Counted from the stretch's first letter, positions 18,824 to 59,777 are shown. The stretch: 64,000 nucleotides of DNA from an uncultured Gemmatimonadaceae bacterium (GCA_963790305.1 CAWBOC010000009.1:1-64000), one strand, 5' to 3'. Notes: generated from the sequence alone by a model not told the origin. Translations and numbers: made by a program.

Positions 18824-18846
18824 CAAATGCTCGAGAATGAAATTGG

Positions 18847-40681: not shown

Positions 40682-40749
40682 AACCTCCAAGACGTTAGCT
40701 CCTACTACCCGGTTTGCCGCACGGGGGTCCTCAAACGGGCCCGCGGGCA

Positions 40750-40888: not shown

Positions 40889-41059
40889 TTATTTCAGAAT
40901 CGCCAGGGGAACGAGTACGCAATACCCGAGCACAAGCATCACGGGTGCCAGGGTAATTCCTCCGCGGGCGAGATCCGCGTACCCGATGCCAAGCGCGAGA
41001 AGCGCGGCACCCCACCACAGTGCCGCGCGCCGCCGCGACCGCGTTTCCGAATTGGGCAT
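40889..41059 (-). CDS. 56-aa two-TM membrane protein (DUF3098-like)
   Basis: MPNSETRSRRRAALWWGAALLALGIGYADLARGGITLAPVMLVLGYCVLVPLAILK; has its own promoter; below the ORF-track length cutoff. Confidence 0.75.
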   Translation of the reverse strand: MPNSETRSRRRAALWWGAALLALGIGYADLARGGITLAPVMLVLGYCVLVPLAILK

Positions 41060-41067
41060 AGGCGTTT

Positions 41068-41096
41068 AGTGTACCCGGGCTCACAAATGGTGTCAA
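41068..41096 (-). promoter_or_regulatory. Near-consensus sigma70 promoter
   Basis: TTGACA-17 bp-TACACT, 8 nt before ATG 41059. Confidence 0.85.
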
Positions 41097-42120
41097 GAAA
41101 ACCCGAGGTGCTCGAGGCACGTCGAGGTGCGTCGAGGTGCTCAAGGTGCGGCTGCGGTTCTGGGCGCGAGGCTTGCCCTCGATCACCTCGAGCACCTGGA
41201 GCACCTTGGTCTCCAAGCAACGCCGCCAACGCACTCTCCCGCGCCGCACGCTCCGCGGCGGCATCGGCGGCCCGCATCGCCTCCAGGCGCCGACGGTCAC
41301 GGCGCCGCCGCGCCACGTAGAGGGGCACCACGACGAGCATCAGCAGCGCCGCCGCCAGCGAGAGATCGGCCGCGATCGCGAGGGCGCCGTACTGCCGGCG
41401 GGTCCGCTGTCGCCATCGCTCCTCGAACTGCGCCTGGGTCACGCCGAAGGCGCGACGGATCGAGACCTCCAGCGATCGCGTTTCGCGCCAGTACTGGAAG
41501 AAGAGCGTGAGCCCGCGCTCCGGATCCAGCGCGGCGAGCTCCGCGACCGCCCGATGCGCGAGCGCGTACGCGGCGTCGGCGCGCGAGGCGCCGCCGGCGA
41601 ACGTCGCATCGAGCGAATCGAGCGTCGGCATTCCGCGCACGAGCAGGGCGACGCTCGTCGCGAGCACCTCTTCTCGACCCCATTCCCCTGCCGCGACGCT
41701 GGCGTAGCCCTCGTGGAACCATCGCGGCGGGAGGTCGCCTAACGCCTCGTCGAGCGCGAGGTGCGCCAGCTCGTGCCGCAGGACGACCACGCGGGGATCG
41801 CCGGCATCGGAGCCGGCGGTGCGGCCCTGCATGATGATCGTGCGCTGCGCGGGAAACGCGATCGCGGCGCCCCACTCCGGGGCCGCGGGACCGATCCATT
41901 CACGAAATCGCCGCTCGTCGGGTGCCACCGCGATGACGACGCGGGCGCGCGGCCGCGGCAGCCAGGGGAAGCTGTCCCGCTCGGCCGCGGCGGTGAGCAG
42001 CGAGCGCATGAGCTGGTTGTCACTCGGATACCCGATGATCGTGAAACGATCCCGGACGAGGCGATGTGGCGCGCTCGGTTGTGCGAAGAGAGATGATGCG
42101 AGAACGACCGCCGCGATCAG
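41093..42120 (-). CDS. Membrane-anchored gluzincin zinc peptidase (peptidase MA-like); ends approximate
   Basis: 'HELAH' plus 'PRWFHEGYA'; N-terminal signal, C-terminal TM followed by an Arg run. Confidence 0.8.
41104..41209. repeat. Degenerate 9-bp (GAGGTGCTC) tandem with an inverted copy
   Basis: cgaggtgct/cgaggtgcgt units facing cacctcgag/cacctggag/caccttg. Confidence 0.75.
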
Positions 42121-43017
42121 GCCGTGGCGCGCGACCGCGAGAGCGAGCCTCCACCCTCGACGTGCTTCAGCATCTCTCCGCAGCGCTTTCCCCATGGATT
42201 GAACTTGTTCGTGCGATGTCCGTCGCGCCACGCATCCATGGCCGCGTCCTTCTGCTCATCGAACCAGAGCGCGCGGCCGAGCTCGAAGTACGCCTCGACG
42301 AGATTCGGGCCGATTTGCAGCGTCTTCTTGAAGAAGGTCTGCGCATCCTCGTACATCTCGCGCTCGAGATACACGAGACCGAGGTAGAAGTGCGCGTACA
42401 GCGTCGCCTTCCGGTCGTTGTCGAGACGGATGGCCTTCGACAGATGCTCGATCGCCTCACCGAAGATGCGCTTCTTGAGGCAAATGTAGCCGACGTTGAT
42501 GCGCGCGAGCGCGTTGGCCGGCTCGCGCATCAGCACCTTCTGGAAGTTCAAGAGCGCGTCGTCGTACTTCTCCTGGAGCATCTGCGCCCATCCCAACAGG
42601 GACTCCGACTGCGGATCGTCGGGCGCGAGCTGCAGCGCACGCGTCAGTGCCTTCTCGGCGCCGTCGTACTCCCCGAGGGAGATGAGGCTCCATCCCTTCT
42701 CGATGAACGTCGAAGCGCCGAGGTGGTCCGCCATGGGCTTCGGACGCTCCGGAGCGAACTGTGGGGCGGCGCCGGGCGAGGTCGACGTCGCGCTCACCGG
42801 GGCCGCCGCCGCCTGCGAGGACTTCCACTTCTCGACGAGCCGCTTTACGTCGTCCTTGAGCGTCGAGAGCTCCGCGATCTGCGCTTCGACCTGCTTGAAG
42901 AGCGAGACAATGTCGCCCTTGAGCGCTTCGCGCTCAGCGGGCGTCGACGCCGCGTCGAGGCGCGCGTTGATGCGCCGCATAACGGGACCGCAAATCGCCA
43001 GCCCCGCCGTCAGGCAT
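42117..43017 (-). CDS. Coiled-coil plus TPR protein
   Basis: N-terminal coiled coil; TPRs from 'FIEKGWSLISLGEYDGAEKALTRALQLAP'; likely ATG 43017 with an early frameshift. Confidence 0.85.
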
Positions 43018-43489
43018 TGTGGGTCGCTCCATCCGCCGCACGCTCGAGCACGAGGCGCTCGTCGGTCGTCAGCAGCCTCGTCACCTCGAGGAAGACGATG
43101 AGGCGATCATTGCGACGCACCACACCGCGCAGGAACTCGGCGGAGAGGCCGCGAAAGAGCGGCGGTGGTGGCGCCAACTCGTCCGACGTCGGGCTGGCGA
43201 CCTCGAGGACGGCGTCCACGATGGCGCCGATCCAGTCGTTCCCCACCGAGAAGACGAGAATGCGCGACTCCGGCCGTGGCTCGATGCTCTCGAGGCCAAA
43301 GCGCAGACGCAGATCGATCACCGGGATGATCCGGCCTCGATACTCGATGACTCCGTCCACCCATTCCGGCACGTTGGGAATGGGCGTCGGCGGCTGGTAG
43401 CGGAGCACGCGCTCCACCGAATAGATGTCGGCGGCGAACAAGTCATCGCCAAGCCGGAAGGTAACGAGCTGCTGTGCGACCGCGGTCAT
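43010..43489 (-). CDS. cheW: CheW adaptor
   Basis: 'QLVTFRLGDDLFA', 'IPNVPEWVDGVIEYRGRIIPVIDLR', 'GAIVDAV'. Confidence 0.92.
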   Translation of the reverse strand: MTAVAQQLVTFRLGDDLFAADIYSVERVLRYQPPTPIPNVPEWVDGVIEYRGRIIPVIDLRLRFGLESIEPRPESRILVFSVGNDWIGAIVDAVLEVASPTSDELAPPPPLFRGLSAEFLRGVVRRNDRLIVFLEVTRLLTTDERLVLERAADGATHNA

Positions 43490-44144
43490 ACCGCCTCCGT
43501 GAGCTGATCCGCCAAACACGCCAGCGCCAGCGACTCGGCGTCGATGAGCGCGAGAAGATCGGCCCCGCGACGGATGACCCCGAGAAGCACGTTGTCATCG
43601 TTGTCGGGGATCGGTGCCCGTCGAACCGCCGCGCCATCGATCGTGAGCACATCCTCGACGTCGTCGACCGCGAGGCCCAGCCGCTTCTCGCGCGATCGCA
43701 GAACGAGCACCGCCGCGGCATCGCGTCCAAGCGCAACGCGCAGCACGCGCTCGGGGGAGTAGATCGGAACGAGCCGCTCCCGGAGCTCGAACACACCCAG
43801 CAGGTGGTCGGGCATCTCCGGCAGATGATGGACCGAGGGCAGCTCGATGGCCTCCTCGACCGCCCCGAGATCGACGGCGAACCGCTCATCTCCGACCCGA
43901 AACACCAGCGTGTCGGACAGCCCTTCCCGCGCTGCGATGGCCTCCCGCAGTGGACGTCGGGTCGGCCCCGATGGCTCTTGATCTTCGAACCGGCGCAGGC
44001 GCCAGCGGCGCTGGAAGCGCTAGAGGCGCTAAAGGCGCTCGGACAGCGTCGGAGCCTCACTGGTGCGTCACTGCCGTCGCGCTCCGCTTGCGCAGGCGTG
44101 CGGCGTGAGCGCTTTCGGCTGTCCGGCTTCTTCTTCTTCGTCAT
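43486..44144 (-). CDS. cheW: CheW-like protein with a low-complexity N-terminal extension, frameshifted
   Basis: 'VFRVGDERFAVDL', 'LPEMPDHLLGVFELRERLVPI', 'GLAVDDVEDV'; start uncertain. Confidence 0.75.
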
Positions 44145-44227
44145 AGCTCGGTACTCGTTGGAGCGCACTGGCTCCAGAGCGGTTAAGTCGAGCGCCTTCA
44201 GCGCCGCCTAGCGCCTCTAGCGCCTCT
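44007..44227. repeat. Two inverted arms of the CTAGAGGCG 9-mer, ~150 bp apart
   Basis: 44007-44041 (..gcgctagaggcgctaaaggcgctcg) versus 44189-44227 (cgagcgccttcagcg..ctagcgcctctagcgcctc). Confidence 0.8.
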
Positions 44228-44258
44228 GACTGAACGGACAGTTCACGCGGAGGCGGCG

Positions 44259-45341
44259 TCACATCACCCCGCTACCCCTGAAGGTCAGCAAATCGGTGAC
44301 GGCGCCGGCGATCGCCGGCAGCGGAAGCACCTGGTCGATTCCCCCCGCCTGCAGCGCCGCGTGCGGCATTCCGTAGATGATCGACGTCGCCTTGTCTTGA
44401 GCGACACCAAGCCCGCCGGCTTCGTGAATGGCCCGCATCCCTTCCGCCCCATCGCGTCCCATGCCTGTCAGCACCACGCCGATCGCCGCTGCGCCGAAGA
44501 CCTCGGCGACGGACTTGAAGAGCGGGTCCGCCGACGGACGCACTCCCCACACCGGCGGTGAGCTGTCGAGCGAGATGACCGGAACTCCGCCCTGAACGCG
44601 CACGCGCATGTGCTGGCCGCCTGGAGCGAGATACACCCGATTGTGCACGACGCGCTCACCATCGCACGCCTCGGCCACGGTGAGTCGCGAGTGAAGGTCG
44701 AGGCGATCGGCCAGGCTCTTCGTAAAGCCTGCGGGCATGTGCTGCACTATGAGCACGGCGGCATCGAGGTCGGGCCGGAGCGCGGGAATGAGATCGGCCA
44801 GGGCCCGCGGTCCGCCGGTGGACGCGGCGATCGCCACGGCACGCGTGGCCCAGGAGCCACCGCCAGCGATGGCCCGTCCAGCCATCGGCGGGTCGGCGCG
44901 GCGAGAGAGCATGGGCATGCCGCGCAGATTCACTTCGCGCGACGCGCGGAGTGCGTCGAGCAGCCGATCGCGAACGCTATCGAGATCGAGTGAGATCGGC
45001 CCGCTCGGCTTCTTGACGAAATCGACCGCCCCGAGCTCGAGGGCCCGGATGGCCGGATCGCGTCCCGACTCGGCCGCCGCGCCGCTCAGCATCACCACCG
45101 GGCGCGGTGTCTCGCTCATGATGTAGCCCAGCGCACCGATGCCATCGAGCTCGGGCATCTCGATGTCCAGCGTGACGAGATCGGGATCGAGGGCGTGAAT
45201 CTTCTTCAGCGCTTCGAGGCCGTTGCGCGCCGTCCCGACGACGCGGAACTCCGCCGAGCCATCGATCATCTCGGAGACGAGCTTGCGCATGAAGGCGCTG
45301 TCGTCGACGACGAGGACCGTCGGCAGCCTAGAGGATGACAT
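44259..45341 (-). CDS. cheB: Chemotaxis methylesterase with receiver domain
   Basis: REC 'VVDDS..LDIEMP'; catalytic 'ASTGGP', 'QHMP', 'GMGRDG'. Confidence 0.97.
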   Translation of the reverse strand: MSSSRLPTVLVVDDSAFMRKLVSEMIDGSAEFRVVGTARNGLEALKKIHALDPDLVTLDIEMPELDGIGALGYIMSETPRPVVMLSGAAAESGRDPAIRALELGAVDFVKKPSGPISLDLDSVRDRLLDALRASREVNLRGMPMLSRRADPPMAGRAIAGGGSWATRAVAIAASTGGPRALADLIPALRPDLDAAVLIVQHMPAGFTKSLADRLDLHSRLTVAEACDGERVVHNRVYLAPGGQHMRVRVQGGVPVISLDSSPPVWGVRPSADPLFKSVAEVFGAAAIGVVLTGMGRDGAEGMRAIHEAGGLGVAQDKATSIIYGMPHAALQAGGIDQVLPLPAIAGAVTDLLTFRGSGVM

Positions 45342-45819
45342 GCCCGGCCCTCAGCGATTTCACCGTGAGGCGGCCATCGCGGACGTCGAAGTACACGCTG
45401 CGACCGTAATCCCCACCGACTTCCTGCGCGACGATCGGAATGCCCGCGTGCTCGAGTGCGGCCCGCGTCGCGACCACGTTCCTCTCCCCGATTTGAAGCC
45501 CCGTCGCCGACAGCAGCGAGGTGAACATGCTCGCGCCGCCGACGATCTTGGCCCGCATGCGCCCCGTGCGCGCGCCTAACGCCTGCATGCGCTCGCACAG
45601 GAGCGGCACCGCCGTCGACGGGAACTTCGCCCGGTTGGACCGGTCCTGCGACATGCCAGTGCTCGGCAGGAGCACGTGCGCCAGTCCGCCGATGCGCGCT
45701 TCCGGGTCGTGCAGCGCGATCGCCACGCAGGAGCCCAGCCCCACCGTGACGAGGAGTGTGCCGCCATTGGCGACGGCAAAGTCCGCCACCTTCACGCGGA
45801 TCTCGGTCGGGGCGCTCAC
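45328..45819 (-). CDS. cheD: Chemoreceptor glutamine deamidase
   Basis: 'TVGLGSCVAI', 'LAHVLLP', 'AKIVGGASMF', 'IGERNV'. Confidence 0.95.
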   Translation of the reverse strand: MSAPTEIRVKVADFAVANGGTLLVTVGLGSCVAIALHDPEARIGGLAHVLLPSTGMSQDRSNRAKFPSTAVPLLCERMQALGARTGRMRAKIVGGASMFTSLLSATGLQIGERNVVATRAALEHAGIPIVAQEVGGDYGRSVYFDVRDGRLTVKSLRAGHVIL

Positions 45820-46640
45820 GGCTTCCGGAAGATGCGCTCGCGCGGATTCACCGGCACGAACAGGTTTCGCGTGGGACCGAGGAGCGTTTCCACTTTTCCG
45901 AGGACGAGAAACCCGCCCGGCACGAGCGCGTCGAAAAACCGCTGGAAGAGCAGCTCCTGGGAAACGCGGTCGAAGTAGATGATGACGTTGCGACAGGTGA
46001 TGAGGTCGAGCCCCCCCGACGGTGTCGGCTCGTGAAGCAGGTCGCGTCGCTCGAACTGCACCATCGCCTTTACGCGTGGATCGAGCGAGTGGGGCGGCTT
46101 GGGCGTGAAGTACCGGCGTCGGATCGCCGGCGGCGTGTCGGCGAAGGCGTCCTCGCCGAAGGTGCCACGCTCCGCCGCCTTGAGACTCAGGCGATCAATG
46201 TCGGTCCCGAGGATCATGATGCGGGACAGCGCTTTCTCATCCTTGCGTTGCATCGCCTCGCGGTGCAGCAGGATCGCGAGCGAGTAGGGCTCCTCTCCCG
46301 ACGCGCAGCCCGCGCTCCAGCACCGAATGTGCTCGTCGCTCGCTGGCCACAGGGCGGGAATCACATCCTCGGCGATGGCGGCGAACGTCTCCCAGTTTCG
46401 AAAAAGCTTGGTGACGTTGATGGTGAGCGCATCGAGCAGGAGCTCGTACTCGCGCGCGTCGCCATCGAGGATCGCGGCGTAGTCGCGATAGGTATGGACA
46501 CCGCGGGCACGCATACGCACCGCGATGCGGCGACGAAGGCATTTTTCCTTGTAGCTGGCGCACCCGAAGCCGCGCTCACGCGAGATCTTCTCCGTGAGCG
46601 CGGCGAACTCCGCGTCGGCCGGCTGCTGCTGGACGCTCAC
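45816..46640 (-). CDS. cheR: Chemotaxis methyltransferase
   Basis: 'TINVTKLFR', 'WSAGCASGEEPYS', 'GTDID', 'CRNVIIYF'. Confidence 0.96.
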   Translation of the reverse strand: MSVQQQPADAEFAALTEKISRERGFGCASYKEKCLRRRIAVRMRARGVHTYRDYAAILDGDAREYELLLDALTINVTKLFRNWETFAAIAEDVIPALWPASDEHIRCWSAGCASGEEPYSLAILLHREAMQRKDEKALSRIMILGTDIDRLSLKAAERGTFGEDAFADTPPAIRRRYFTPKPPHSLDPRVKAMVQFERRDLLHEPTPSGGLDLITCRNVIIYFDRVSQELLFQRFFDALVPGGFLVLGKVETLLGPTRNLFVPVNPRERIFRKP

Positions 46641-48256
46641 ATCACCGTCCGGACGAGGTCGAGATTGGTGCGAATGAGCGCGTTCTCGGGATCCAGCTCG
46701 AGCGCTTTCTCCCAGCACTCGAGCGCCGCCTCGCGCTCGTGCTTGCGATAGCGAATGTTGCCCATCTTGAACCACACGTCGTGCCCCTGCCCCGGCGCCA
46801 GCCGTGCGGCACGCTCGTACGATTCCAGTGCGCGATCGTACTGCCCAGCGCGATAGTGGCAGTCGCCGAGGTTCTTGTGCAGGTGCGGCAGCCCGCTGTC
46901 GTCGCCGAGGCCGGTTTCAGCCGCCTCCACTGCCTGACGATACTGCCCCGCGCGCTCGAGGAGCGTCGCCTTGAGATTGTGGAGCGCCGCCACGTGCGGA
47001 TGCACGGTGAGCGCCTCGTCCACCAGCGCCGAGGCGCGCTCGAAGTCGCCGCCGAGCGCCGCGGCCAGGGCGGCGTAATGGAACCAGGGGGCCGTCGGTT
47101 TGCGCTTGCCGAACAGCGGCCGCGCCGCCGCGAGGAGCGCGTCACCCTCGTCGAGCTGCCCGCGCCTGAGGGCCACGATGCCAAGCGCGATCTGCACGCG
47201 AGGGTCCGCCCCGCCCCCGCGACTCACCGCTTCCTCGAGCGCGATCTGCGCGTCATCGAGCCGCCCGGTCCGCTCGAGCACGAAGGCGAGGTTGTGGAAG
47301 ACCGCCGCCGGAGCGTTCGGTTGGCTTGCCGCCTCGCGCAACGACTCCTCGGCCTGCGGCAGGCGTTCGTTACGCAGGTGCACGAGCGCCATGTAGAAGA
47401 GCGCCTGCCCGTCGTTCGGCCGCAGCTCGGCGACACGTCGGAACTCGCGCGTGGCTTCCTCGTACATGCCGGTCTTGTAGAAGGCGATGCCGAGGTTGCG
47501 GTGCTCCTCGACGCGCGCCTCCCGGACGACGGCATCGGACGCTTTCGACTTGCCGATGCGGTGCAGAAAGCCGGCGGTCGCGAGACCGTAGAGCGCCTTG
47601 CCGACCTCGAACTCGCCGAGGCCCGACTCATCGACGAGTGCAGCGACATCGCGCCGCCCGTCGACCAGCGGGATGAGCTGCTCCTGCTCCATCGTGAGCT
47701 CGGCATCACTGGCGGCCAGCTTGGTGCGATCGAGCTCGAAGATGATGTCGAAGCTCGGGATCTTCTTCTCGATGAGGCTCCACTCGTCGACACGCCGTGC
47801 CCCCTCGAGCAGCAACGACTCCGGGTTGATCGACACCAGAAAGTCGCGCTCGTCAGGCAGCACGTCGGCCTCGAAGCTGAACGTGCCCTGCGTCCAGGTG
47901 AAGAGGAAATACACGGCCTCCTCGATCTGGAGACGGATGTACCGGTGCAGCTCCTCGCGCGTGAGGATCTTCTGCTCGATGAGGATCTCACCGAGCCGCT
48001 TGTCGCGCTGGCGACTCTGGGCCTGGATCGCGGAGTCGAGCTCCTGCTGCGTGATGAGCCCGTTCTTGACGAGAATGTCGCCGAGGCGATCGCGGCGGTT
48101 CACGATCGACGCGTACGAGATACGACCGCGCGAGAAGTACACCGTGCCGAAGCTGCTGCGGTCCGCCACGCTCAGACATCCCGTCTTCTGCCCCATGGCG
48201 AGCAGCTGGAGGACGTCCGGAAGGCTGGCTTCGCGAAGACTGCCTTTGATCGCCAT
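46637..48256 (-). CDS. DUF4388 (PatA-N-like) plus TPR protein
   Basis: 'IKGSLREASLPDVLQLL..KTGCL', 'RLGDILV', 'WTQGTFSF', 'LLLEGARRVDEW'; C-terminal TPRs. Confidence 0.85.
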   Translation of the reverse strand: MAIKGSLREASLPDVLQLLAMGQKTGCLSVADRSSFGTVYFSRGRISYASIVNRRDRLGDILVKNGLITQQELDSAIQAQSRQRDKRLGEILIEQKILTREELHRYIRLQIEEAVYFLFTWTQGTFSFEADVLPDERDFLVSINPESLLLEGARRVDEWSLIEKKIPSFDIIFELDRTKLAASDAELTMEQEQLIPLVDGRRDVAALVDESGLGEFEVGKALYGLATAGFLHRIGKSKASDAVVREARVEEHRNLGIAFYKTGMYEEATREFRRVAELRPNDGQALFYMALVHLRNERLPQAEESLREAASQPNAPAAVFHNLAFVLERTGRLDDAQIALEEAVSRGGGADPRVQIALGIVALRRGQLDEGDALLAAARPLFGKRKPTAPWFHYAALAAALGGDFERASALVDEALTVHPHVAALHNLKATLLERAGQYRQAVEAAETGLGDDSGLPHLHKNLGDCHYRAGQYDRALESYERAARLAPGQGHDVWFKMGNIRYRKHEREAALECWEKALELDPENALIRTNLDLVRTVM

Positions 48257-50170
48257 CAGCGGAGATCCTCAATGATGCGCCCGGCAAGGTCGGGCCAATC
48301 CCACACGGTCTTTTCGCGGTCGCCGAAGTGCGTGTCGCCTGACGGCGTGGCGCGATGCACCGGCGTTGACCGGCGCACCGATGTCACCCGCGCGACATCA
48401 GCGCTCGTAAGGCGCCGGTTGTCATTGCCCGCCATCTCGGCCAGCCGTTCGCCCACGCGAAGCACGTCGCGGGCGGTTGGCATCTCCAGCGCAGCCGCCG
48501 CGTGCAGCACCTCGGGAGCGGGCTCCACCCCTGCGGCAGCGAGTGCGCGGGCGATGAGCTTTTCGCGCAGCAGTCGGTCCGGTGGCTGGATCTCGACGAC
48601 GAGACCACCCTCGAACCGCGAGCGCAGCCGTTCGTCCATCTCGGTCAGCGTGCGCGGCGCGCGCGAGGAGGTGAGGACGACCTGCTTCCCCGCCTCCATG
48701 AGGGTGTTGAAGAGATGAAAAAACTCGTCCTGCGTTCGCTCCGTGCCAGCGAACATCTCGATCTGATCGATCAGCAACGCGTCCACACGGCGGTAGCGTC
48801 CACGCCAGGTCTCGATCGCGCTGTCCTGAAGCGCCGCGATCAGCTCGTTCACGAAGTCGCTGGCGTTCACGCAGGCGATCGTCATCGCGCCGCCACTCGC
48901 GCCGGCGAGCTCGTTCCCGATCGCATGCAGGAGATGCGTCTTCCCCACGCCGGGACTTCCGTGGATGACCAGCGGGTTGTACCGGCGGCCCGGCTCCTCG
49001 ACGATCGCGTCCGCGGCATGTACCGCCAGCTGGTTGGAGGGACCGACCTCGAACTCGGCACGAAGGAGCGACCCGTCGGGCGGCGGGGGCGGGGCCGAGT
49101 CGGCGCGAAGTGTCTCCGCCAATCGCTCGAGATCCTCGATCGCGTCCGGGTCGCGAAACTGCACCGAGCCGCGCTGCGTGGGATCGAGCGCGACGATCTC
49201 CTGCTCCAGTGCGCGCAGCCGCGTGACCTTCTGCTCGAACTGCTGAAGAAGCGCGTCGGGATCCGCGGTATCGGGGCTCTGAAGCGCGCGCTCGAGCGCG
49301 GCTGTTCGGTACCCCTGCGTCCGCCATTCCGCTGTCAACTCGACGAGCCTCACTCGACGCGCATCGACATGCTGCGCGACGGCGACCGCCAGGCCCGAGA
49401 GGAAGCTTTCGTATTCTCCGCTCTTGGGGGCGAGACGCTGCGGTCCGCTGCCGTTGCCGCGATCGCCCAGCAGGCCCTGAATGCTCTCCACGGTCACATC
49501 GCCTTCGCCCAGTGTCTGAAACGCGATCAACCGGTTGATGGCGCCATGCATCTCGCGCACGTTGGCGAAGACGACGCGTGCAACCTCCTCGACGACGCCG
49601 GGTGGGAACGTCACGTCGCGCTCGTCGCACCGGCGCCGCAGGATCGCCACGCGCGTTTCGTAGTCGGGCGCGCCCATGTCGACGAGCAAGCCGCCGGAGA
49701 AGCGCGTCATCAGGCGGTCGTCGAGATCGGCGATCTCCGCCGGCGGCCGATCGCTGGTGAGCACGATCTGCTTGCCGCTCCTCTGCAACACGTTGAACAG
49801 CCGCAGCAGCTCGCTTTGCGTCTCCTGCCGTCCGGTGAGAAACTGCACATCGTCGAGGAGCAGGACATCGAGCGCCGCAAAACGCTGGCGGAACGCGTCC
49901 GTCTCCCCGCGCGTCACCGCCTGATGCAGAATGCTCGACGAGCTCATCGGTCGTGACGTACTCGGCCTGGAGATCGGGCTGCAGCTGCTTCGCGAGCTGT
50001 CCGATGGCGGACAGCAGGTGCGTCTTGCCGAGCCCCGATGCCGCGTAAATGAACAACGGGTTGTAGGCCGCTCCCGGCGACTGCGCGACTGCGCGCGCCG
50101 CCGAGACGGCGAGGCGGTTGGCCGCGCCGACGACGAAGGTGTCGAAGCGAGAGCGGACGTCGAGGGCCAT
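48256..50170 (-). CDS. Protein with two tandem DnaA-type AAA+ domains and no DnaA domain I or IV; frameshift near 49935
   Basis: 'FDTFVVGAANRLA..YNPLFIYAASGLGKTHLL..LLLDDVQF..RLMTRF..NVREMHG' and 'FEVGPSNQLA..YNPLVIHGSPGVGKTHLL..LLIDQIEM..TQDEFFHLFN..RLRSRF'. Confidence 0.92.
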
Positions 50171-50173
50171 GCG

Positions 50174-50782: not shown

Positions 50783-50787
50783 GATCG

Positions 50788-51285: not shown

Positions 51286-51632
51286 ATGACGAGCCGCTCC
51301 AGCGCCTTGAGCATCTCCATCCGCATGAGGCCGATATTCGCGCGCGCGTCGGCGACGATCACGAGCACCATGTCGTTCTTCCCCGCGGCGCACACGTGCC
51401 CTTCCGTCGCGCGGAGGCGAAGGAACGTGACGCCTCCGAGTCCGGCGGCATCCGCCGACAGGCGCGCCTTGCGATAGAGGGACGCCGCGAGCGCCGCGAA
51501 CGCCGGGCCCTTCATCCCCACGTGCAGCGTCGCGTCGATGATGACGCCGTCGGTCTCGTCGACGAGCAGGCTGCCACGCACGCCGCGTTGGCGCGTGAGG
51601 GCCGCGATGATGGGCGTCAGATTGGTCTTCAT
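51282..51632 (-). CDS. Roadblock/LC7 protein
   Basis: 'GVRGSLLVDETDGVII', 'FAALAASL', 'ANIGLMRMEM'. Confidence 0.82.
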   Translation of the reverse strand: MKTNLTPIIAALTRQRGVRGSLLVDETDGVIIDATLHVGMKGPAFAALAASLYRKARLSADAAGLGGVTFLRLRATEGHVCAAGKNDMVLVIVADARANIGLMRMEMLKALERLVI

Positions 51633-52468: not shown

Positions 52469-53606
52469 GGGCGCGCCCCGTCAACAATCCGTGGAGGGCG
52501 GACGCGCTCGCGAGCGCTTCACGCACACGAGCGGCATTCCCGCTGTTAGGCAGCATACGAAGGTAGCGCTCCCATGCCGCCATGGCTTCGCCAAGATCCC
52601 CTCGGGCCGCCGCGCAGTAGCCCGTCTCGAGATGGGTTTCGGCGTGCAGCGGGTCGAGCTGCAGCGCTCGCCGCAGCTCCTCGGCAGCGTCGTTGAGGCG
52701 ACCCGCTTTGCTCAGCGCACGGGCCATGGCGACCCGGGCCTCCGCCATCTGCGGATCGGCCGAGATCGCCTGGCGCGATGCCGCGAGCGATCCTTCCACG
52801 TTGCCGGATTCCAGCAGCGAACGCGCACGCTCAATGTGGGGGCGCGCATCCTCCGGTGCGCCCACGTGCTGCGGCGTCACCAGACGCGGGTCGCGCAGCT
52901 CGATGACACCCGTCGTCACCATCCCGTAGACGACCTTCGCGATGTCGAAATCGCTTTGCCCCAGACGCAATGCGATCTCGCGCAGGTCCTTGGCCCCATC
53001 GATCTCGGCGAGCACTTCCCACTCGTTGGGCAGCAGGTCGAGCAGCGACGGGTGATCGGCCCGCAAGGGCGCGAGCACCGGCACCACTCCGACGTGTGGC
53101 ACCTTGCCTTCTATGCGCGACCATTCGTCGATGCGGCGCGCGCCCTCCATGAGCAGCGACTCGGTCGAGATGCGCACCAATGCCTCGCTCGGCGCGTCCG
53201 AGATCGGGCGCTCCTCGAAGGAGAAGTATCCCTCTCGCCACGACATCAGCTCGAACACCACTTCCTCAATGTGGAGCCGCACGTGCCGCTCGAGCTCCTT
53301 CGGCGTCACCGCTCCCATCTCGAGGAGAATCTCGCCGAGTCGCCTCGCGTCTCCCTTCTGTTGCGTCGCTCGTGCCCGGTCCAGATCCGCTTCCGAGATC
53401 TTTCCCGCCCGCACCAGCATGTCGCCCAATCGATGCGGATTGCTGCGGATGGAGGCGAACACGACAGCGCCACCGTCGAAGAAGACGGTGCCCTGATTGT
53501 CGCGCAGCGCCGATACGACGCTCAGCGCGCCCGTCTTCCGGCTCAGGTCGAGCAGCTGGAAGACGTCGTGGATTCCAAGCTCGCGCAGCGGTCCTTCGAT
53601 CGGCAT
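52461..53606 (-). CDS. DUF4388 plus TPR protein (paralog of 46637-48256)
   Basis: 'IEGPLRELGIHDVFQLL..KTGAL', 'WREGYFSF', 'LLMEGARRIDEW'; C-terminal TPRs. Confidence 0.85.
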   Translation of the reverse strand: MPIEGPLRELGIHDVFQLLDLSRKTGALSVVSALRDNQGTVFFDGGAVVFASIRSNPHRLGDMLVRAGKISEADLDRARATQQKGDARRLGEILLEMGAVTPKELERHVRLHIEEVVFELMSWREGYFSFEERPISDAPSEALVRISTESLLMEGARRIDEWSRIEGKVPHVGVVPVLAPLRADHPSLLDLLPNEWEVLAEIDGAKDLREIALRLGQSDFDIAKVVYGMVTTGVIELRDPRLVTPQHVGAPEDARPHIERARSLLESGNVEGSLAASRQAISADPQMAEARVAMARALSKAGRLNDAAEELRRALQLDPLHAETHLETGYCAAARGDLGEAMAAWERYLRMLPNSGNAARVREALASASALHGLLTGRAHG

Positions 53607-53608
53607 CG

Positions 53609-56314
53609 CTAGGCGACCTCCTCGCGCGAGCGGAAGATGCGCTGCAGGTCGGCCGCGGTCCGCGCATCGCGTCGCGCGCGTCGTGCGAACTCGCTGGCGG
53701 GCTCCACATCGACCACACGCTGCCACTTCGCGATCGCGTCGCGATACCGATGCTGCTCGGCGAGCAGAACCCCCTGGTAGTAGAGCGCTCCGGCATGATC
53801 AGGATCGAATCGCACAATGCGCTCGAACCCCGTGCGAGCATCGTCTCGCCGCTCGAGCGCCAGCAGCGTCTCGCCGAGCGCCAGGAGCGCGTCGAGGTTA
53901 TAGGGGTCGCGCTTCAACAGGTCGACGAGCGGGCCGAGCGCTTCCTTGGCGCGGCCGAAGTTGCGCCGGACCGCGGCAAGCTCGAGCGTCGCCTCGACGT
54001 ACGTAGGAACGGCTTCGAGCGCGGCGAGCAGATGCTCCTCCGCTTCCTTGGCCTGACCGCGCTCGGCCACCAGGCGCGCAAGCTCGAACCGCACGACCGC
54101 GAAATCCCGGTCCAGGTCGATGGCATCGCGATAGGCGATGATCGCGCCCTCGACGTCCCCCACCGCGCGCGCGACGTCGCCGATCTTCTGGAGAACATCC
54201 GGGCGCGCGGGCGCGAGACGACGCGCCTTGTCGAGATGCTCCAGAGCGCCCGCCGGGTCACCCTCGTCCGCGCGCGCCGAGGCGGCGAGCAGGAGCCCCT
54301 CCACGCTCGTTCCATCGACAGCGAGGAGCTCCTCGGCGACGACACGGGCTTCGGTGGCACGGCCGAGCACGAGCAGCGCGCGTGTCTCGCCTAACAGGGC
54401 GCGTGTCGGGACGTGACCGTTCAGGCCGCGCGCCTCGCGATAGCGCTCCAGCGCCTCGCCGAACAAGCCCTGGCGCGTGAACACATCACCGAGCAGCGCG
54501 AGCCCTTCCCCGCGGTCCCCGCCGCGCGTCATCGCGCGGCTGATCTCGGCCGACGCCCGCTCGAGCAGCCCTTTGGTGAGGTAGTCCACCGCCATCGCGT
54601 AGGGGTTCGCTTCCCCCGGCGCTGCGGTGTCCGCCTTCGCCGGCTTGAGCGACGTGAACAGCGAGTCGAGGACGCGTGCGTCGAAGGCGAACTCTTCGAC
54701 GCTCTCGTCCTGGCGCTTCTCACCGCCAAGGTCGGGGACGATCGAGAGGTCGGGATCCTCGTACTCGAGATCGATCGCCAGCTCGAACTTTTGCGCGACG
54801 TAGTACGGATCGATCTCGAGCGCGCGCTTCGTCTCACGCAGGGCGCCCTCGAAATCGCCGAGGTTGGAGAGCGCGAAGCTGAGATTGTAATGCGCTTCGG
54901 CGTACTCGGGACGTGCCTGAATGGCGCGGCCGAAGGCGTTGCGCGCATCCTCGTACTTCTTGAGCTCCGCCAGCACCAGACCGATCCCGTTCCACGCGAC
55001 GGGCTGCTCGGGCTCAACGGAAAGCACCTGGCGATACGCCTCCAGCGAGAGCTGAAGGCGCTTCCCCTTGAACAGCAGCAGGGCGAGGTTGAGCCACGCC
55101 TTGGTGAACGCCGCTTCGATACCGAGCGCGGCACGGAAGGCGTCGATGGCCTCTTCCGTTTGGCCGCCATGGTACAACGCCACGCCGAGATTGTTGTGCC
55201 CGATCGCGTACCGCGGATCGGACTCGAGTGCGGTGCGATAGCTCTGCGCCGCGTCGGCGTACCGGCCTTCCTGATGGAGTGCGACGCCCCGCTCCGCCCA
55301 GAGCTTGGGGCTGCCAGGCTGCTCGGCGACGAGCTGCTCGTAGAGCTCGTAGGCGGCGCGCGTATCCTTCCGCAGCAGGTGCACCTCGGCCATGGCCTGC
55401 ATAACGAGCAGGCGATCCTCACCCCGCTCCAGCGCAATGCGATACTCGCGTAGCGCCTCGGCGTAGTAGGCCTTCTGGCGAAACGCGAGCCCGAGATTGA
55501 AATGGGCGAGCGTCTTCTCTTCCGCGACCTCGAGCCGCTCGGCCGCGCGTCGACGCTGCTCGGGCAGGAGCGTCTCGTACCGAGCGTCCTTGTATCGCTC
55601 CAGGGAGAGGTTCGCCTGCGCGCGCGAGAGCGTCGGGTTGAGCGCGATCGCCCTCTTTTGCGCGGCACGTGCGTCCTCATGACGTCCCATGTCGCCGAGC
55701 ACGAACCCCATGAGGTAGTGCGCGTCGGGATTGTCGGGGTTGAGCTCGAGCGCGCGCTTGAGCGCGGCCAGCGCCTCGTCGTTGAGGCCGCGGTTGTAGA
55801 TGACCTCGCCGAGGTAGAAGTTCACCACCGAGCTGTTGGGCTCGAGCGCGAGCGCGCGCTCGAACCACTGCTGCGCCTTCTCGAGATCCCCGCTCGCCTT
55901 CTCGGCGAGCCCGAGCTGCACGATGGCACCGAGGTCTTCCGGGTGGTGCAGCAGGAGCGCGCTGAACTCGCGCACCGCTTCCGTCACGTTGCCGAGCGAG
56001 GCGTACGCGCGCCCGAGCTCCCAGCGGGCATCGCGGTCGTCGGGGCGTTGGCGGAGCCGCTCCGTCAGCTCGGAGACGCGACGGTCGTAGTAGCCGGTGT
56101 TGAAGTACGCGATCTCGAGGTTCCGCTGCGCGACCTGCATCTTCGAGTCGAGCTCGAGCGCGCGCGTGAATGCGGACACCGCTTCCTCGTAGAGTCCCTT
56201 GTTGAAGTAGAGAACCCCGAGGTTGTTATGCGCCCCCGCATCCGACGGATCGATCCGTCGAGCGAACGAGCGCAGGACCTCGCGGTCGCGCTCGGATGTG
56301 AGGACGGGGGTCAT
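53609..56314 (-). CDS. Large cytoplasmic TPR-repeat protein (901 aa)
   Basis: Many 34-aa repeats (AHNNLG, AHYLMG, AWNGIG, AHYNLS); no signal peptide. Confidence 0.92.
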   Translation of the reverse strand: MTPVLTSERDREVLRSFARRIDPSDAGAHNNLGVLYFNKGLYEEAVSAFTRALELDSKMQVAQRNLEIAYFNTGYYDRRVSELTERLRQRPDDRDARWELGRAYASLGNVTEAVREFSALLLHHPEDLGAIVQLGLAEKASGDLEKAQQWFERALALEPNSSVVNFYLGEVIYNRGLNDEALAALKRALELNPDNPDAHYLMGFVLGDMGRHEDARAAQKRAIALNPTLSRAQANLSLERYKDARYETLLPEQRRRAAERLEVAEEKTLAHFNLGLAFRQKAYYAEALREYRIALERGEDRLLVMQAMAEVHLLRKDTRAAYELYEQLVAEQPGSPKLWAERGVALHQEGRYADAAQSYRTALESDPRYAIGHNNLGVALYHGGQTEEAIDAFRAALGIEAAFTKAWLNLALLLFKGKRLQLSLEAYRQVLSVEPEQPVAWNGIGLVLAELKKYEDARNAFGRAIQARPEYAEAHYNLSFALSNLGDFEGALRETKRALEIDPYYVAQKFELAIDLEYEDPDLSIVPDLGGEKRQDESVEEFAFDARVLDSLFTSLKPAKADTAAPGEANPYAMAVDYLTKGLLERASAEISRAMTRGGDRGEGLALLGDVFTRQGLFGEALERYREARGLNGHVPTRALLGETRALLVLGRATEARVVAEELLAVDGTSVEGLLLAASARADEGDPAGALEHLDKARRLAPARPDVLQKIGDVARAVGDVEGAIIAYRDAIDLDRDFAVVRFELARLVAERGQAKEAEEHLLAALEAVPTYVEATLELAAVRRNFGRAKEALGPLVDLLKRDPYNLDALLALGETLLALERRDDARTGFERIVRFDPDHAGALYYQGVLLAEQHRYRDAIAKWQRVVDVEPASEFARRARRDARTAADLQRIFRSREEVA

Positions 56315-56317
56315 GCG

Positions 56318-56938
56318 TCAGGCCAGTCGTACCGCGCGAAGGATGGCTTGCAGCGACGCGAGGTCCGGCAGCAGGAGGAAGAAGCCGCGGAGATGCTCGT
56401 TCTGCTCCTGGAGGAAGAACTGGCTCTCGACGTAGAAGACGTGATCGCGATCGGTGCCGAACTGCAGGAAGGCTGTCGACAGGATCGCGGAGGACATGTC
56501 GATGGCGAGGCTCGGCGGCGACGGCAGGAGCATGAGGCCCATGAAATCGCTCAGCGCGTTCATGTACGCGCCGCTGAGAATGTTTCCAGCCTCCTTGATC
56601 GCCGACTGCTCGAGCGCACCCATCTCCTGCGAGGAGCCGGACGGGCGGCGCAGCATGAGCTCGGCGAGCCGCATGGCCGTCGGTCGCGGAAAGACGAGCA
56701 GCGTTCGGCCCGTGAGGTCGCCGAGCATGTGCATCAGCACGGCGGCAATCGGCTCTTCCGGCTCGCTGAGCTGCGTCGGCACGTCCTCGAGCGACGAGAT
56801 GTTGATCGTCGGCACGCTGATCATGATCGTGCTGCCGGTCATCTGCGAAAGCGCCGTCGCCGCATGGCCCGCCCCGATGTTGGCCACTTCGCGCAGTGCA
56901 TCGAGCTGGACGGCCTTCAATTCCTTGATGTCGTTCAT
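56318..56938 (-). CDS. cheC: CheC phosphatase
   Basis: Two active-site motifs 'DALREVANIGAG' and 'SAIKEAGNIL'. Confidence 0.93.
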   Translation of the reverse strand: MNDIKELKAVQLDALREVANIGAGHAATALSQMTGSTIMISVPTINISSLEDVPTQLSEPEEPIAAVLMHMLGDLTGRTLLVFPRPTAMRLAELMLRRPSGSSQEMGALEQSAIKEAGNILSGAYMNALSDFMGLMLLPSPPSLAIDMSSAILSTAFLQFGTDRDHVFYVESQFFLQEQNEHLRGFFLLLPDLASLQAILRAVRLA

Positions 56939-56946
56939 TCTCTCCT

Positions 56947-58843
56947 CTACAGAAGGCTGCCCACGTCCACGATCAGCGCCGGGGCCCCGTCGCCCAGGAT
57001 GGTCGCGCCGCTGAACAACGCGGCCGCGTTTCGAACGGCATCGAACTGCTTCACCACGATGTCCTGCTGCCCCGCGAGCTCGTCGACAACCAGTCCGGCG
57101 CGACGTTCCCCGACCTCCAGCACGATCACCTGGGGCATGCGCGCGCCGTCGGCGGCGAGGCCGAGCAACGACCGGAATCGCACGAGTGGCAGCACGTCGT
57201 CGCGAAGCATGAGCACCTCGTGGCCTTTCACCGATTTGAGGGCGGCGCCTTCCAGCTCGACGGTCTCGTTCACGTGCGTCATCGGGACGGCGAACGTGTC
57301 GCCATCCACGCGGACGAGCAGCGCGCGCAGAATCGCCAACGTGAGCGGCAGGCGCAGCGTCACCGTGGTGCCGCGCCCGGGAATGGAGCGAATCTCCACC
57401 GAGCCCCCGAGCGAGCGGATGCGAGCGTGCACGACGTCGATGCCCACGCCTCGGCCCGAGATGTCGGTGACGCGCTCGGCGGTCGAGAAACCCGGCCGTG
57501 AGATGAGGCGAATCAGATCATCGTCGTTGAGCTCGGTGCGTCCCGTATCGACGAGACCGAGATGCCGCGCCTTGGCGAGCACTCGATCGCGATCGATGCC
57601 TCGCCCGTCGTCGCTCACGCGAATGGTGATCGACGAGCGCTCGCGCGCCGCCGACAACACGAGCTTTCCTGCCGGAGGCTTCCCCGCCGCGACGCGCTCG
57701 GACGCCGACTCGAACCCGTGATCGATCGCGTTGCGCAGGAGGTGAACGACGGGATCGCCGATCTCGTCGAGCATGGACCGGTCGAGCTCGATCTCCTTCC
57801 CTTCGATGGTGAACTCGATCTGTTTGCCCAGCGACCGCGCTGCGTCCCGAACGAGCCGCGGGAAGCGGTCGAACACCTGCCACACCGGCACCATGCGGCT
57901 GGCCATGATCTGGTCCTGCAGATCGGAGACGAGCCGCGACGCTTCGGTGACGGCCTCGGTCAGCGCCGGATCATCGCGGGTGATCGCGAGCTGAACCAGC
58001 CGGCCGCGGGTGATCACGAGCTCCCCGATGAGGTTCATGAGCGCATCGAGGCGGCGGAGATCGATGCGCACGTTGCGCGAGGAGCGCGCGCGTCCCGATT
58101 CGGCGGCTTTGGCCGCGGCGCGGGCCTTGGGATCCTCAATGTCTACGCGATCGACGTCCCCGGCGGCGCGGAGCGCCGAGGCGATATCCGCCGGGGGCGC
58201 ATCGGTCTCGAGACGGATGGCGAACTCGCGATCGAACTGCTCGGCCTGAAGCGCCTCCACCGGCGGGAGCACCTCGAGCACGCGGCCTAACGATTCTGCT
58301 CGCTTCACCACCACGAAGGCACGCACGCCCCGGAGCGGAGCGTTGGCGGCGAGGCGGATGCGGATCAGCAGTTGCGAAGGCGCGAGAGGCGCTGAGAGGC
58401 GCGAGGGGCGCTGGGGGCGCTGAGAGCGCTGGAGAAGCGCTGGTGATGGCCGGGAATTCGCCGCTCATGCGGCCCATCGCACGCAGCCGCTCGATCACCG
58501 GGCTCGCATCCGCCGTCGCATCCTGACCGCGCACCGCTTGCTCCACCGACGTCTCGAGCACATCGGCCGCCTCGAAAAGCGCGTCCATGACGGTCGGCGT
58601 GATCTTCCGCTCTCCGCGCCGCACGGCGTCGAGTACCGTCTCCAGCTCGTGCGTCAGCGTCGCGACCGCCTCGTACCCCATCGTCGCGCTCATCCCCTTC
58701 ACCGTGTGCACCGCGCGAAAGATCGCGCTCAACGGCTCCGCAGCCGCTGGGTCGCGCTCCAGCTCCAGCAGCAGATGGTTGATCGCCGAAAGGTGCTCTC
58801 GGCTCTCCGTCAGGAAGAGGTCGGCGTAACGGGTGAGATCCAT
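56947..58843 (-). CDS. cheA: Chemotaxis kinase CheA (P1-P2-P3-P4-P5), frameshift near 58330
   Basis: 'FRAVHTVKG', 'LDALMNLIGELVI', 'HLLRNAIDHG', 'SGRGVG', C-terminal CheW domain. Confidence 0.97.
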
Positions 58844-58849
58844 GGCCCT

Positions 58850-58975
58850 GGGGTCAGGAGTCAGGAGTCAGTGGTCAGGGGGTGTCGGGGTCTAGGTGTG
58901 AGGAGACCGGCTCGCGCATGCCCTGACTCCGACCACCTGACACCCCCTGATCCCTGACTCCTGACTCCTGACCCC
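58850..58975. repeat. Long hairpin of the 7-mer CAGGAGT/ACTCCTG between cheY and cheA
   Basis: 58850-58871 pairs perfectly with 58954-58975 (22 bp), plus an inner 12-bp stem tcagggggtgtc/gacaccccctga. Confidence 0.95.
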
Positions 58976-58978
58976 TCG

Positions 58979-59341
58979 TTATCCAAGTACTCGCTGCACT
59001 GCTTCGAGAACTCTGCTCGGTTGGAAGGGCTTGACGACAAAGTCCTTCGCGCCTGCCTGAATCGCTTCGACCACGAGCGCCTGCTGCCCCATGGCGCTGC
59101 ACATGAGGACCTTCGCGTTCGGGTCGAGCTTCGTGATCTCACGCACCGCATCGATCCCGCCCATGTCCGGCATCACGATGTCCATCGTTACGAGATCGGG
59201 TCGCAGCTGCTTGTACTTCTCGACGGCCTGGACGCCCGTCTCAGCCTCCCCGACGATCTCGAAGCCGGACTGCTGCAGGATGTCGCCGATCATCGTGCGC
59301 ATGAAGATGGCGTCATCGCAGATCAGCACCGTGTGACTCAC
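58979..59341 (-). CDS. cheY: CheY response regulator (Bacillus/Thermotoga-like)
   Basis: 'ICDDAIFMR', 'TMDIVMP', 'CSAMGQQALV', 'VKPFQ'. Confidence 0.95.
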   Translation of the reverse strand: MSHTVLICDDAIFMRTMIGDILQQSGFEIVGEAETGVQAVEKYKQLRPDLVTMDIVMPDMGGIDAVREITKLDPNAKVLMCSAMGQQALVVEAIQAGAKDFVVKPFQPSRVLEAVQRVLG

Positions 59342-59352
59342 CGTTCCCTCCG

Positions 59353-59777
59353 CTAGAGCAGGACGTGCTTGATGATGGAGTGGATGTCGAGGATAATGAC
59401 GACTTTGTCGTCCATTCGTCCCAAGCCGACGATCGATGCATCTTCGCCATCGCGCTCCGTCGCGTGCTCGATCGATTCGGCGGGAAGCATCATGACGTCG
59501 TTCACTTCCGCGACGGCGATTCCGACGAGCTTTTGACGGTGCTCCACGAGGATCACGGAGCCATCCGACGCGAGCGAGCTGTTCCCGTCCAGGCGTGAGC
59601 CGAGGTCGAGAACGGTGACGATCGTCCCGCGAACGTTGATCAGCCCGGCGACGTAGGCGGGCGCGCCGGGGACGCGCGTGGCGCGTCGCACGGGGAGGAT
59701 CTCGCGCACCGCGTCGAGATCGATCCCGTAGAGCCGGTCGCCGAGGCGGAACAGCACCAGGCGGCGAACGGGGACAT
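59353..59777 (-). CDS. cheW: CheW adaptor; start approximate
   Basis: 'LFRLGDRLYGIDL', 'VPGAPAYVAGLINVRGTIVTVLDL'. Confidence 0.92.

Follow-up and report, generated by a model that had tools for sequence, protein, structure and literature searches.

What would a bacterium control with a chemosensory pathway that is built around a polarity GTPase and a double DnaA-like ATPase? This question is raised by a gene cluster of an uncultured Gemmatimonadaceae bacterium, found in a stretch of 64,000 nucleotides (nt; CAWBOC010000009.1:1-64000) that we call the window and to which all coordinates refer. There, the genes of one Che pathway enclose mglA, mglB, further Roadblock genes, genes for tetratricopeptide repeat (TPR) proteins and the gene of an ATPase with two DnaA-type modules. 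Our best explanation of this arrangement is that the Gemmatimonadales carry, clade-wide and by vertical inheritance, a chemosensory-polarity operon. Type IV pilus polarity is in our opinion its most likely output, under a Frz-like control that is built into this single operon; we infer every functional link of this proposal, which has slightly more in its favour than against it. The initial annotation of the window had suggested a module for polarity, motility or division. Its composition, the conservation of its order, its unsplit blocks and one predicted contact support this suggestion in part, while its function stays a proposal.

The cluster consists of 19 co-directional genes on the minus strand (59802-40939), called with Pfam supplemented by NCBIfam, with start codons refined by the upstream Shine-Dalgarno-like sequence. 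Their order, as initially annotated, is cheW1, cheY, cheA, cheC, the gene of a 901-amino-acid TPR protein, PATAN-TPR 1, TPR-Roadblock, Roadblock, mglB, mglA, the ATPase, PATAN-TPR 2, cheR, cheD, cheB, cheW2, cheW3, TPR and HExxH (Peptidase_MA_2). With the refined starts, neighbouring genes overlap or are separated by no more than 29 nt at 17 of the 19 in-cluster junctions (5 nt between mglB and mglA), and the two wide ones are cheY-cheA (135 nt) and cheB-cheW2 (114 nt). The last open reading frame, formerly thought to end at 41093, ends at 40939 and is followed by a 20th conserved gene (39601-40750). The consensus scan of the cluster gave 2 promoter-like sites versus 1.0 in shuffled sequence and 7 terminator-like sites versus 7.4, neither being above chance. 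An internal promoter or terminator splitting the che and mgl blocks had been named beforehand as a ground for doubting the single module; no consensus site of either kind lies between them. The TPR and HExxH genes overlap by about 115 nt in different frames (42117-42231), and the tblastn coordinates of relatives show 75-111 nt.

The conservation of this order, which the initial annotation had chosen as its own test, was found to extend far beyond chance across the order Gemmatimonadales. With the ATPase as a query, a strong match (E 5.4e-70 or better) was obtained in 38 of 41 genomes, namely the window's own and 40 relatives from three families (37/40 when the unpublished genome G015 is left out); the matches in G011, G019 and G024 are only at the level expected of the true DnaA. 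Gene content was then followed in two independent sets of loci, each chosen through a gene of the cluster, so that the gene counts are conditional on that gene. The first set comprises about 20 kb around the ATPase gene from 20 genomes, compared by tblastn with 25 window proteins. As far as the contigs reach, the order is kept in all 20, at 35-90% amino acid identity and together with the upstream rluD, and mglA is directly upstream of the ATPase gene in 19. Variants do occur: mglB, mglA, cheR, cheB and two cheW genes are missing from G018, cheR, cheB and the cheW pair from G037, cheR from G023 and cheD from G020. The second set, obtained with PATAN-TPR 2 as a query, holds the best 80 of 573 confirmed stretches, and these 80 are all labelled Gemmatimonadota or Gemmatimonadetes, except one titled only 'bacterium'; metagenome-assembled genomes labelled Gemmatimonas are among them. 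Among its loci with enough flank, the counts are ATPase 72/72, mglA 65/65, mglB 62/62, Roadblock 61/62, TPR-Roadblock 56/56, PATAN-TPR 1 53/53 and 901-amino-acid TPR protein 45/45 for the mgl block, cheC 43/43, cheR 69/72, cheD 66/69, cheB 60/62 and cheW3 51/55 for the che genes, and TPR 50/50 and HExxH protein 47/47 for the genes near the end.

A less biased view is given by an even sample of the phylum, made of 401 genomes and counted here by family (f1-f12). The mid-domain of the ATPase is found in 253 of them. It is present in f1 (73/93), f2 (160/166), f3 (5/5), f4 (5/7), f5 (2/2), f8 (4/4) and, rarely, f7 (3/70), and absent from f6 (0/30), f9 (0/4), f10 (0/13), f11 (0/3) and f12 (0/3). 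The phylum tallies, for the mid-domain as for CheA and PilM, include four unpublished genomes, G015 (f1), G086 and G204 (f2) and G125 (f8); dropping them lowers the affected family counts by one or two and alters no conclusion.

Flagella, pili and the resemblance to Frz

The GTPase belongs to the MglA family. It matches Myxococcus xanthus MglA (5ymx/6h17) over its full length (residues 1-194, E 5e-75), and the P-loop, switch and G3 stretches CKIVYYGPG, DRTLFFDFLPL and LYTVPGQV are identical in both proteins. The product of the adjacent gene matches M. xanthus MglB (6h5b_B/6izw_B; 48 bits, E 1.5e-11) and also Thermus MglB; by its fold, this similarity and its adjacency to mglA, it is a Roadblock-fold homologue of the GTPase-activating protein (GAP) MglB, with a predicted GAP activity. 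The small Roadblock protein only matches generic Roadblock/LC7 chains in the PDB. Both PATAN-TPR proteins are well above the cut-off of PF14332 (25 bits), and in both the insert of the PATAN domain also exceeds the cut-off (38 bits) of NF053729, an MshE-related cyclic di-GMP (c-di-GMP) motif. The MshEN motif is described as two tandem 24-residue copies of RLGxx(L/V/I)(L/V/I)xxG(L/V/I)(L/V/I)xxxxLxxxLxxQ (PMC5013675). In a regular-expression search, PATAN-TPR 2 only fits a loosened form of it, twice, and PATAN-TPR 1 fits neither form, both of its copies being degenerate. Judging from these sequences, c-di-GMP sensing by the PATAN inserts is plausible.

Several known systems can be compared with the cluster, and the closest is Frz/MglA of M. 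xanthus (with MglB, MglC, RomR, RomX and SgmX). The likeness lies in the association of a Che-type pathway, an MglA GTPase, a Roadblock GAP, extra Roadblock proteins and large TPR proteins, with type IV pili as the presumed output of the window's system. Frz itself is characterized by a CheA-CheY fusion kinase (FrzE), an in-cluster cytoplasmic methyl-accepting chemotaxis protein (MCP), FrzCD, and the dual-receiver protein FrzZ, and to our knowledge it has neither CheC nor CheD. By contrast, CheA of the window is limited to Hpt, P2, dimerisation, HATPase and CheW domains and has no fused receiver, CheC and CheD are present, and neither an MCP gene (Pfam and a MCPsignal search of the genome) nor a dual-receiver gene was detected inside the cluster. 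The tandem DnaA-like ATPase and the PATAN-TPR pair also have no described Frz counterpart. Moreover, mglA is away from its partner genes in Myxococcus, and likewise in Bdellovibrio (PMC4316618), whereas everything is in one operon in the window. As for Frz, all the genomes found to have it encode MglA, MglB and RomR as well (PMC3441718). By analogy, the cluster may work like Frz acting on MglA, without being a member of the Frz family.

The second comparison is with the cyanobacterial Tax/Pix phototaxis systems and their PatA-type PATAN-receiver proteins, which share with the cluster a chemosensory pathway and a PATAN output domain with a two-repeat helical insert. In the window, PATAN is fused to TPR rather than to a receiver, so phosphorylation cannot act directly on it, and MglA, MglB and the ATPase are added. 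We know of no MglA, Roadblock, PATAN or AAA+ ATPase in the Pil-Chp system of Pseudomonas aeruginosa (PilG/PilH), of which the kinase and regulator architecture differs from the window's. The likeness here is that of a Che-like pathway that polarises pilus extension (PMC10519157). Connections of MglA and PATAN with each other and with pili are documented. Group 1 MglA occurs in Gemmatimonadetes, with some mglA genes near PATAN genes (Wuichet and Sogaard-Andersen 2015, PMC4316618), and mglA and mglB are often encoded near PATAN genes (PMC4316618; bioRxiv 10.1101/2021.06.11.447907). In Synechocystis, the PATAN domain alone binds the N-terminal domains of PilB1 and PilC and reverses phototaxis (Han et al., bioRxiv 10.1101/2021.06.11.447907), and PATAN proteins were among the candidates considered in the SgmX study (PMC11580455). 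A word search of the main text of PMC4316618 gave 0 occurrences of 'chemotaxis', 'CheA' and 'DnaA'. Our literature searches, which covered sources outside subscription journals, found no published description of the cluster, in agreement with the earlier statement that no characterised system has this composition.

On these grounds, the control of pilus polarity could proceed as follows. Receptors encoded by MCP genes elsewhere in the genome would signal to CheY, a single-domain protein, by way of the three CheW proteins and CheA. CheC would reset CheY, with CheR, CheB and CheD adapting the receptors. Phosphorylated CheY would act on the embedded switch made of MglA, its putative GAP MglB and the two further Roadblock proteins. 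From there, the 901-amino-acid TPR protein, a candidate SgmX-like effector, and both PATAN-TPR adaptors would relay the output to PilB/PilC, the motor of the type IVa pilus, and the PATAN inserts may add a c-di-GMP input. The result would be the choice of the piliated pole and the timing of reversals, as with Frz acting on MglA in Myxococcus.

The more familiar possibility is an ordinary flagellar chemotaxis operon with passenger genes. Its CheC, CheD, CheW, CheA, CheY, CheR and CheB content is indeed like that of Bacillus, Thermotoga and archaeal systems, and the best NCBIfam models for its Che proteins are CheA_Halo, CheY_Halo and CheC_Thtogales, all below their cut-offs. But in the window's genome (13 contigs, 94% complete) no FlhA over the cut-off and no flagellar export gene were found, and Pfam and a further gene scan detected neither flagellar nor pilus genes in the 64 kb of the window, as the initial annotation had claimed. 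The only CheA of this genome is that of the cluster, and its seven MCP genes are all on other contigs. FlhA is distributed quite differently from the cluster in the phylum sample (f1 47/93, f2 33/166, f3 0/5, f8 0/4, f10 13/13). In f2, the mid-domain is in 160 genomes and FlhA in 33, therefore at least 127 genomes have the cluster without FlhA; in f10, every genome has FlhA and none has the cluster. The cluster is thus independent of flagella. Furthermore, a CheA is encoded 10-25 kb from FlhA in six flagellated genomes (G279, G047, G190, G150, G074 and G124). In the flagellated genome G100, from which the cluster is missing, there is an ordinary cheA-cheW...cheB-cheR operon, with a CheA 39% identical to the window's. 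The supposed passengers are also conserved as well as the che genes. Some flagellated relatives have this CheA alone, a point to which we return; all in all, a flagellar operon with passengers is very improbable.

The output could also be unrelated to motility and concern exopolysaccharide, biofilm, development or the remodelling of the envelope. The route might then be the HExxH protein of the membrane and the TPR proteins that close the operon, together with c-di-GMP. The operon ends with a HExxH protein that has two transmembrane (TM)-like segments and is kept in all 47 loci, next to a TPR protein conserved in most loci, of which the N-terminal hydrophobic stretch, as read by eye, may be a signal peptide; MshEN-type motifs are present as well. 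However, these last two genes may form a separate unit, as there is a gap of 188 nt ahead of the last gene and a promoter-like site at 41096-41068. The switch regions of MglA are near-identical to those of the Myxococcus motility GTPase, and the known link of PATAN is to the pilus motor. We consider such an output improbable. As to the pili, genes for type IV pili are present in the window's genome, which has 10 T2SSE matches, 9 of them over the family cut-off, and one PilM, and its PATAN domains are restricted to the cluster.

The tandem DnaA-domain ATPase

The most unusual component of the cluster is the ATPase. Each of its halves matches DnaA domain III, as is the case for DnaA and Hda: there are two Bac_DnaA (PF00308) matches, and the model predicted with AlphaFold (AF2; mean predicted local distance difference test (pLDDT) 84.3, predicted template modelling score (pTM) 0.47) retrieves with Foldseek the domain III of Bacillus subtilis DnaA (8bv3_A, TMt 0.96, root-mean-square deviation 1.4 Å, 41% identity). 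The whole protein gives weaker matches to tandem AAA+ proteins such as p97. In 18 aligned orthologues, both modules have Walker A (GxGK[TS]H) and Walker B (LLxDD) motifs, which are invariant, and motifs resembling DnaA box VI/VII, which are well conserved; because of these motifs, it looks like an oligomerising AAA+ protein. The differences are equally clear, since a single chain carries two modules joined by a conserved helical mid-domain, followed by a disordered linker and a conserved C-terminal motif, REKxVWDWP...RxIEELR. The mid-domain alone had no Foldseek match from the whole-ATPase model, and the ESM Atlas gave no usable match.

This protein is not a replication initiator by its domain content. 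Pfam gave no match to Bac_DnaA_C or domain IV of DnaA, TIGR00362 is matched at profile positions 104-338 only, and the true dnaA is on another contig (G000:C5). It does not qualify as Hda/HdaA either, with 160.7 bits for TIGR03420 (cut-off 194.8) and two modules in 637 amino acids. The public labels, which are 'DnaA/Hda family protein' or 'chromosomal replication initiator', are probably misleading.

A partner can be proposed for the C-terminal tail. Short terminal peptides are often bound by TPR domains, and PATAN-TPR 2 is the constant downstream neighbour of the ATPase gene, with an overlap of 1 nt; for these two reasons, the tail (residues 585-637) was folded with full-length PATAN-TPR 2, with an author-supplied alignment of 18 rows for each. 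The median docking score (ipSAE) was 0.83 (runs 0.82, 0.83 and 0.87), while the best of three controls reached 0.02. Of 157 solved complexes, 116 attain this score mark, as do 2 of 215 mismatched pairs; these rates are rough here, the alignments being our own. At least 88% of the contacts are common to the runs, and the pLDDT of the partner is 66 or more. The model places residues 610-637 of the tail along residues 284-494 of PATAN-TPR 2, within its TPR domain (about 250-539). The contacts involve, on the side of the tail, the invariant E619 and W625 and the near-invariant K620 and V622, and, on the side of the TPR, the invariant L291, D465 and G491 and residues 390 and 393, which flank the invariant W391. 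The model thus supports the docking of the tail in the TPR groove of PATAN-TPR 2. The interactions expected by the initial annotation between the blocks have, in this predicted contact, a first candidate with clean controls.

In the scheme of pilus control, the ATPase would be tethered by its tail to this groove, and would probably oligomerise in an ATP-dependent manner as a scaffold or a timer. We can tentatively go further and imagine that a duplicated DnaA domain III was recruited as a cytoplasmic component of polarity or motility, forming an ATP-driven oligomer that its C-terminal peptide would anchor to a PATAN-TPR adaptor, at the base of the pilus. The Roadblock proteins would set the assembly state of this oligomer as MglB sets the state of MglA. 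This is possible, although we would not call it likely.

Several facts weigh against the control of pilus polarity as we propose it. Seven flagellated genomes (G023, G079, G167, G217, G225, G303 and G321) have only one CheA match, so the cluster may also serve flagella there. PilM is found in 377 of the 401 genomes, including families without the cluster; because it is nearly universal, the phyletic pattern permits the pilus reading without singling it out, and Pfam and the gene scan of the window located pilus genes neither in nor beside the cluster. The two loosely fitting MshEN copies are kept in only 6 of 18 PATAN-TPR 2 orthologues, in addition to the degenerate copies of PATAN-TPR 1. As for the docking, it is a model built on our own alignments. 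The genus of G019 has lost the ATPase and kept all the other cluster genes, with mglA adjoining PATAN-TPR 2. In G019, PATAN-TPR 2 (L035, G019:C12, 16908-18437) is without the MshEN-like insert and the last TPR repeats, and the decay of its TPR is general rather than specific to the interface, with 7/13 interface columns kept versus 31/57 other TPR columns. Finally, the cluster is just upstream of the division and cell wall (dcw) genes in 23 of the 30 relatives' loci that reach far enough, with ftsI within about 3-4 kb.

This last fact leads to another reading, that of a cell-cycle or division polarity module, in which the MglA/Roadblock/ATPase block would mark a pole or the division plane (budding, asymmetric division), or would position or partition the chemoreceptor array, the Che proteins being its input or its cargo. 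There is a precedent for the positioning and partitioning of arrays at division, the ParA-like PpfA, which is encoded in a Rhodobacter che operon. In the window, the dcw genes ftsI, murE, murF, mraY, murD, ftsW, murG, murC, ftsA and ftsZ (22137-36425, minus strand) are downstream of the che-mgl genes and co-directional with them, and an oligomerising AAA+ protein would suit this role. On the other hand, the adjacency may be inherited synteny, and a plus-strand diacylglycerol-kinase-like gene separates the two arrays in the window, a gene present in only 7/30 of the relatives' loci. The ATPase has no DnaA DNA-binding domain, one genus does without it while keeping everything else, and the documented links of MglA and PATAN are to pili. 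A division module is thus unlikely, and the Frz-like control of pilus polarity is still the reading that we prefer.

Reading frames and features of the window

Three genes of the cluster are frameshifted in the window, which could suggest a decaying, non-functional relic in this strain. cheA is in two frames, with a break in the repeat-rich P1-P2 linker near 58393 (Pfam and a three-frame reading); a DNA alignment with G004, of which the protein parts are 94-98% identical to the window's, locates a single surplus base in the ATPase gene at 49931; and cheW2 changes frame between the ATG at 44144, which begins its N-terminal extension, and the CheW domain (43960-44144). A split of cheA into two genes was ruled out, as the first start codon of the second frame (58326) sits inside the P2 domain. 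In relatives, these genes are intact: cheA in G003 and G008, the ATPase gene in a single frame in 20/20, and cheW2 as a single open reading frame in G004. In a control stretch with unrelated genes (10000-29999), the window shows at least five frame changes against two genomes of its genus that are intact there, near 24630 (ftsA), 22558 (ftsZ), 17080, 16315 and 11661; the genes affected also include a recG-like helicase and a class II tRNA synthetase. On a different contig, a T2SSE gene is broken as well. A soil-metagenome contig, 99% identical, carries behind 58393 8 extra bases that by arithmetic restore the cheA frame, and a 94% identical metagenome contig is without the extra base at 49931; the latter has one single-base gap of unplaced position and is not decisive alone. 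Because the relatives are intact, the control stretch is equally noisy, the T2SSE gene is split elsewhere and the metagenome contigs differ, the three frameshifts are not evidence of decay. The control region and the metagenome contigs led us to reject the pseudogene reading, and we consider a relic scarcely credible. We read the indels of the cluster as assembly noise, concentrated in short tandem repeats; since this noise is window-wide (about 1 indel per 4 kb), gene calls in this assembly need care. The downstream gene at 39601-40750 is likewise in two parts, with a frameshift site at about 40160, and these parts align in one frame in the G023 locus according to tblastn coordinates and arithmetic.

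A GC-rich repeat of about 100 nt, made of short tandem units (GGCGCTAGA-like), is found at about 15648-15753. G004 and G008, two genomes of the same genus, contain dozens of copies of it, including one in the cheB-cheW2 spacer of G004. Similar units occur in the window in the cheB-cheW2 spacer (43906-44258), the cheA linker (58380-58450) and the N-terminal region of cheW2; those inside coding linkers coincide with two frameshift sites.

Table 1. Genes of the che-mgl cluster, in the order of transcription
Gene or product	Coordinates	Strand	Evidence and remarks
cheW1	59353..59802	-	Pfam CheW 117 bits; likely start GTG 59757
cheY, single-domain response regulator	58979..59341	-	Pfam Response_reg 109 bits; NCBIfam CheY_Halo 136 bits, below cut-off
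cheA (Hpt-P2-H-kinase_dim-HATPase_c-CheW; no receiver domain)	56947..58843	-	Pfam in two frames; frameshift near 58393
cheC/cheX-type CheY-P phosphatase	56318..56938	-	Pfam CheC 82.6 bits; NCBIfam CheC_Thtogales 177 bits, below cut-off
901-amino-acid all-TPR protein	53609..56314	-	Pfam TPR families; no TM-like segment; in 45/45 loci of the second set
PATAN(DUF4388)-TPR 1, MshEN-like insert	52461..53606	-	PF14332 108 bits; NF053729 49.4 bits
TPR-Roadblock/LC7 fusion	51629..52468	-	Pfam TPR and Robl_LC7 34 bits
Small Roadblock/LC7 protein, 116 amino acids	51282..51632	-	Pfam Robl_LC7 31 bits
mglB, Roadblock-fold GAP homologue, 165 amino acids	50788..51285	-	Robl_LC7 (PF03259) 30 bits; M. xanthus MglB match
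mglA, Ras-like GTPase	50174..50782	-	M. xanthus MglA 254 bits
Tandem DnaA-domain-III ATPase ('DnaA2'), about 637 amino acids when intact	48256..50170	-	Pfam Bac_DnaA x2; 1-nt insertion at 49931
PATAN(DUF4388)-TPR 2, MshEN-like insert	46637..48256	-	PF14332 133 bits; NF053729 52.7 bits
cheR	45816..46775	-	Pfam CheR 160 bits, CheR_N; likely start GTG 46640
cheD	45328..45819	-	Pfam CheD 108 bits
cheB (receiver and methylesterase)	44259..45341	-	Pfam CheB_methylest 219 bits, Response_reg
cheW2, basic low-complexity N-terminal extension	43486..44144	-	Pfam CheW 88 bits; frameshifted; frame offset 2
cheW3	43010..43489	-	Pfam CheW 122 bits
TPR protein, 287 amino acids	42117..42980	-	Pfam TPR families; 50/50 loci of the second set
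HExxH (Peptidase_MA_2) protein	40939..42231	-	Pfam 37.5 bits; HELAH at residue 153; TM-like 29-50 and 281-309; 47/47 loci
Conserved downstream gene, unknown N-terminal part and TPR	39601..40750	-	tblastn synteny; two frames here, one in G023

Two further features were noticed outside the cluster. Two tandem signal peptidase II genes (lspA, Peptidase_A8), at 60805-61335 and 61332-62072, are located between a dksA-like zinc-finger gene and rluD. In an FtsY-like open reading frame of 945 amino acids on the minus strand (17894-20728), the SRP54 GTPase domain occupies residues 743-943, hence a very long N-terminal extension if this frame is real in a noisy assembly.

A candidate parts set in one operon

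Work on Myxococcus, in which the genes concerned are dispersed in the genome, is still establishing by what route chemosensory signals arrive at the MglA switch. The conserved operon of the window gives a full set of candidate parts in one place, and this set is common to 253/401 sampled genomes of an abundant and barely studied soil phylum. It brings in new candidate players, which are the double DnaA-type ATPase, the PATAN-TPR adaptors and the extra Roadblock proteins, and the first of these is routinely mislabelled as a replication initiator in public annotation. The predicted contact between the ATPase tail and the TPR groove is specific, and it can be tested cheaply. If the recruitment of DnaA domain III as a polarity component is true, two nucleotide switches, one for GTP and one for ATP, would be placed under a single chemosensory pathway, possibly coupling polarity to the neighbouring division machinery.

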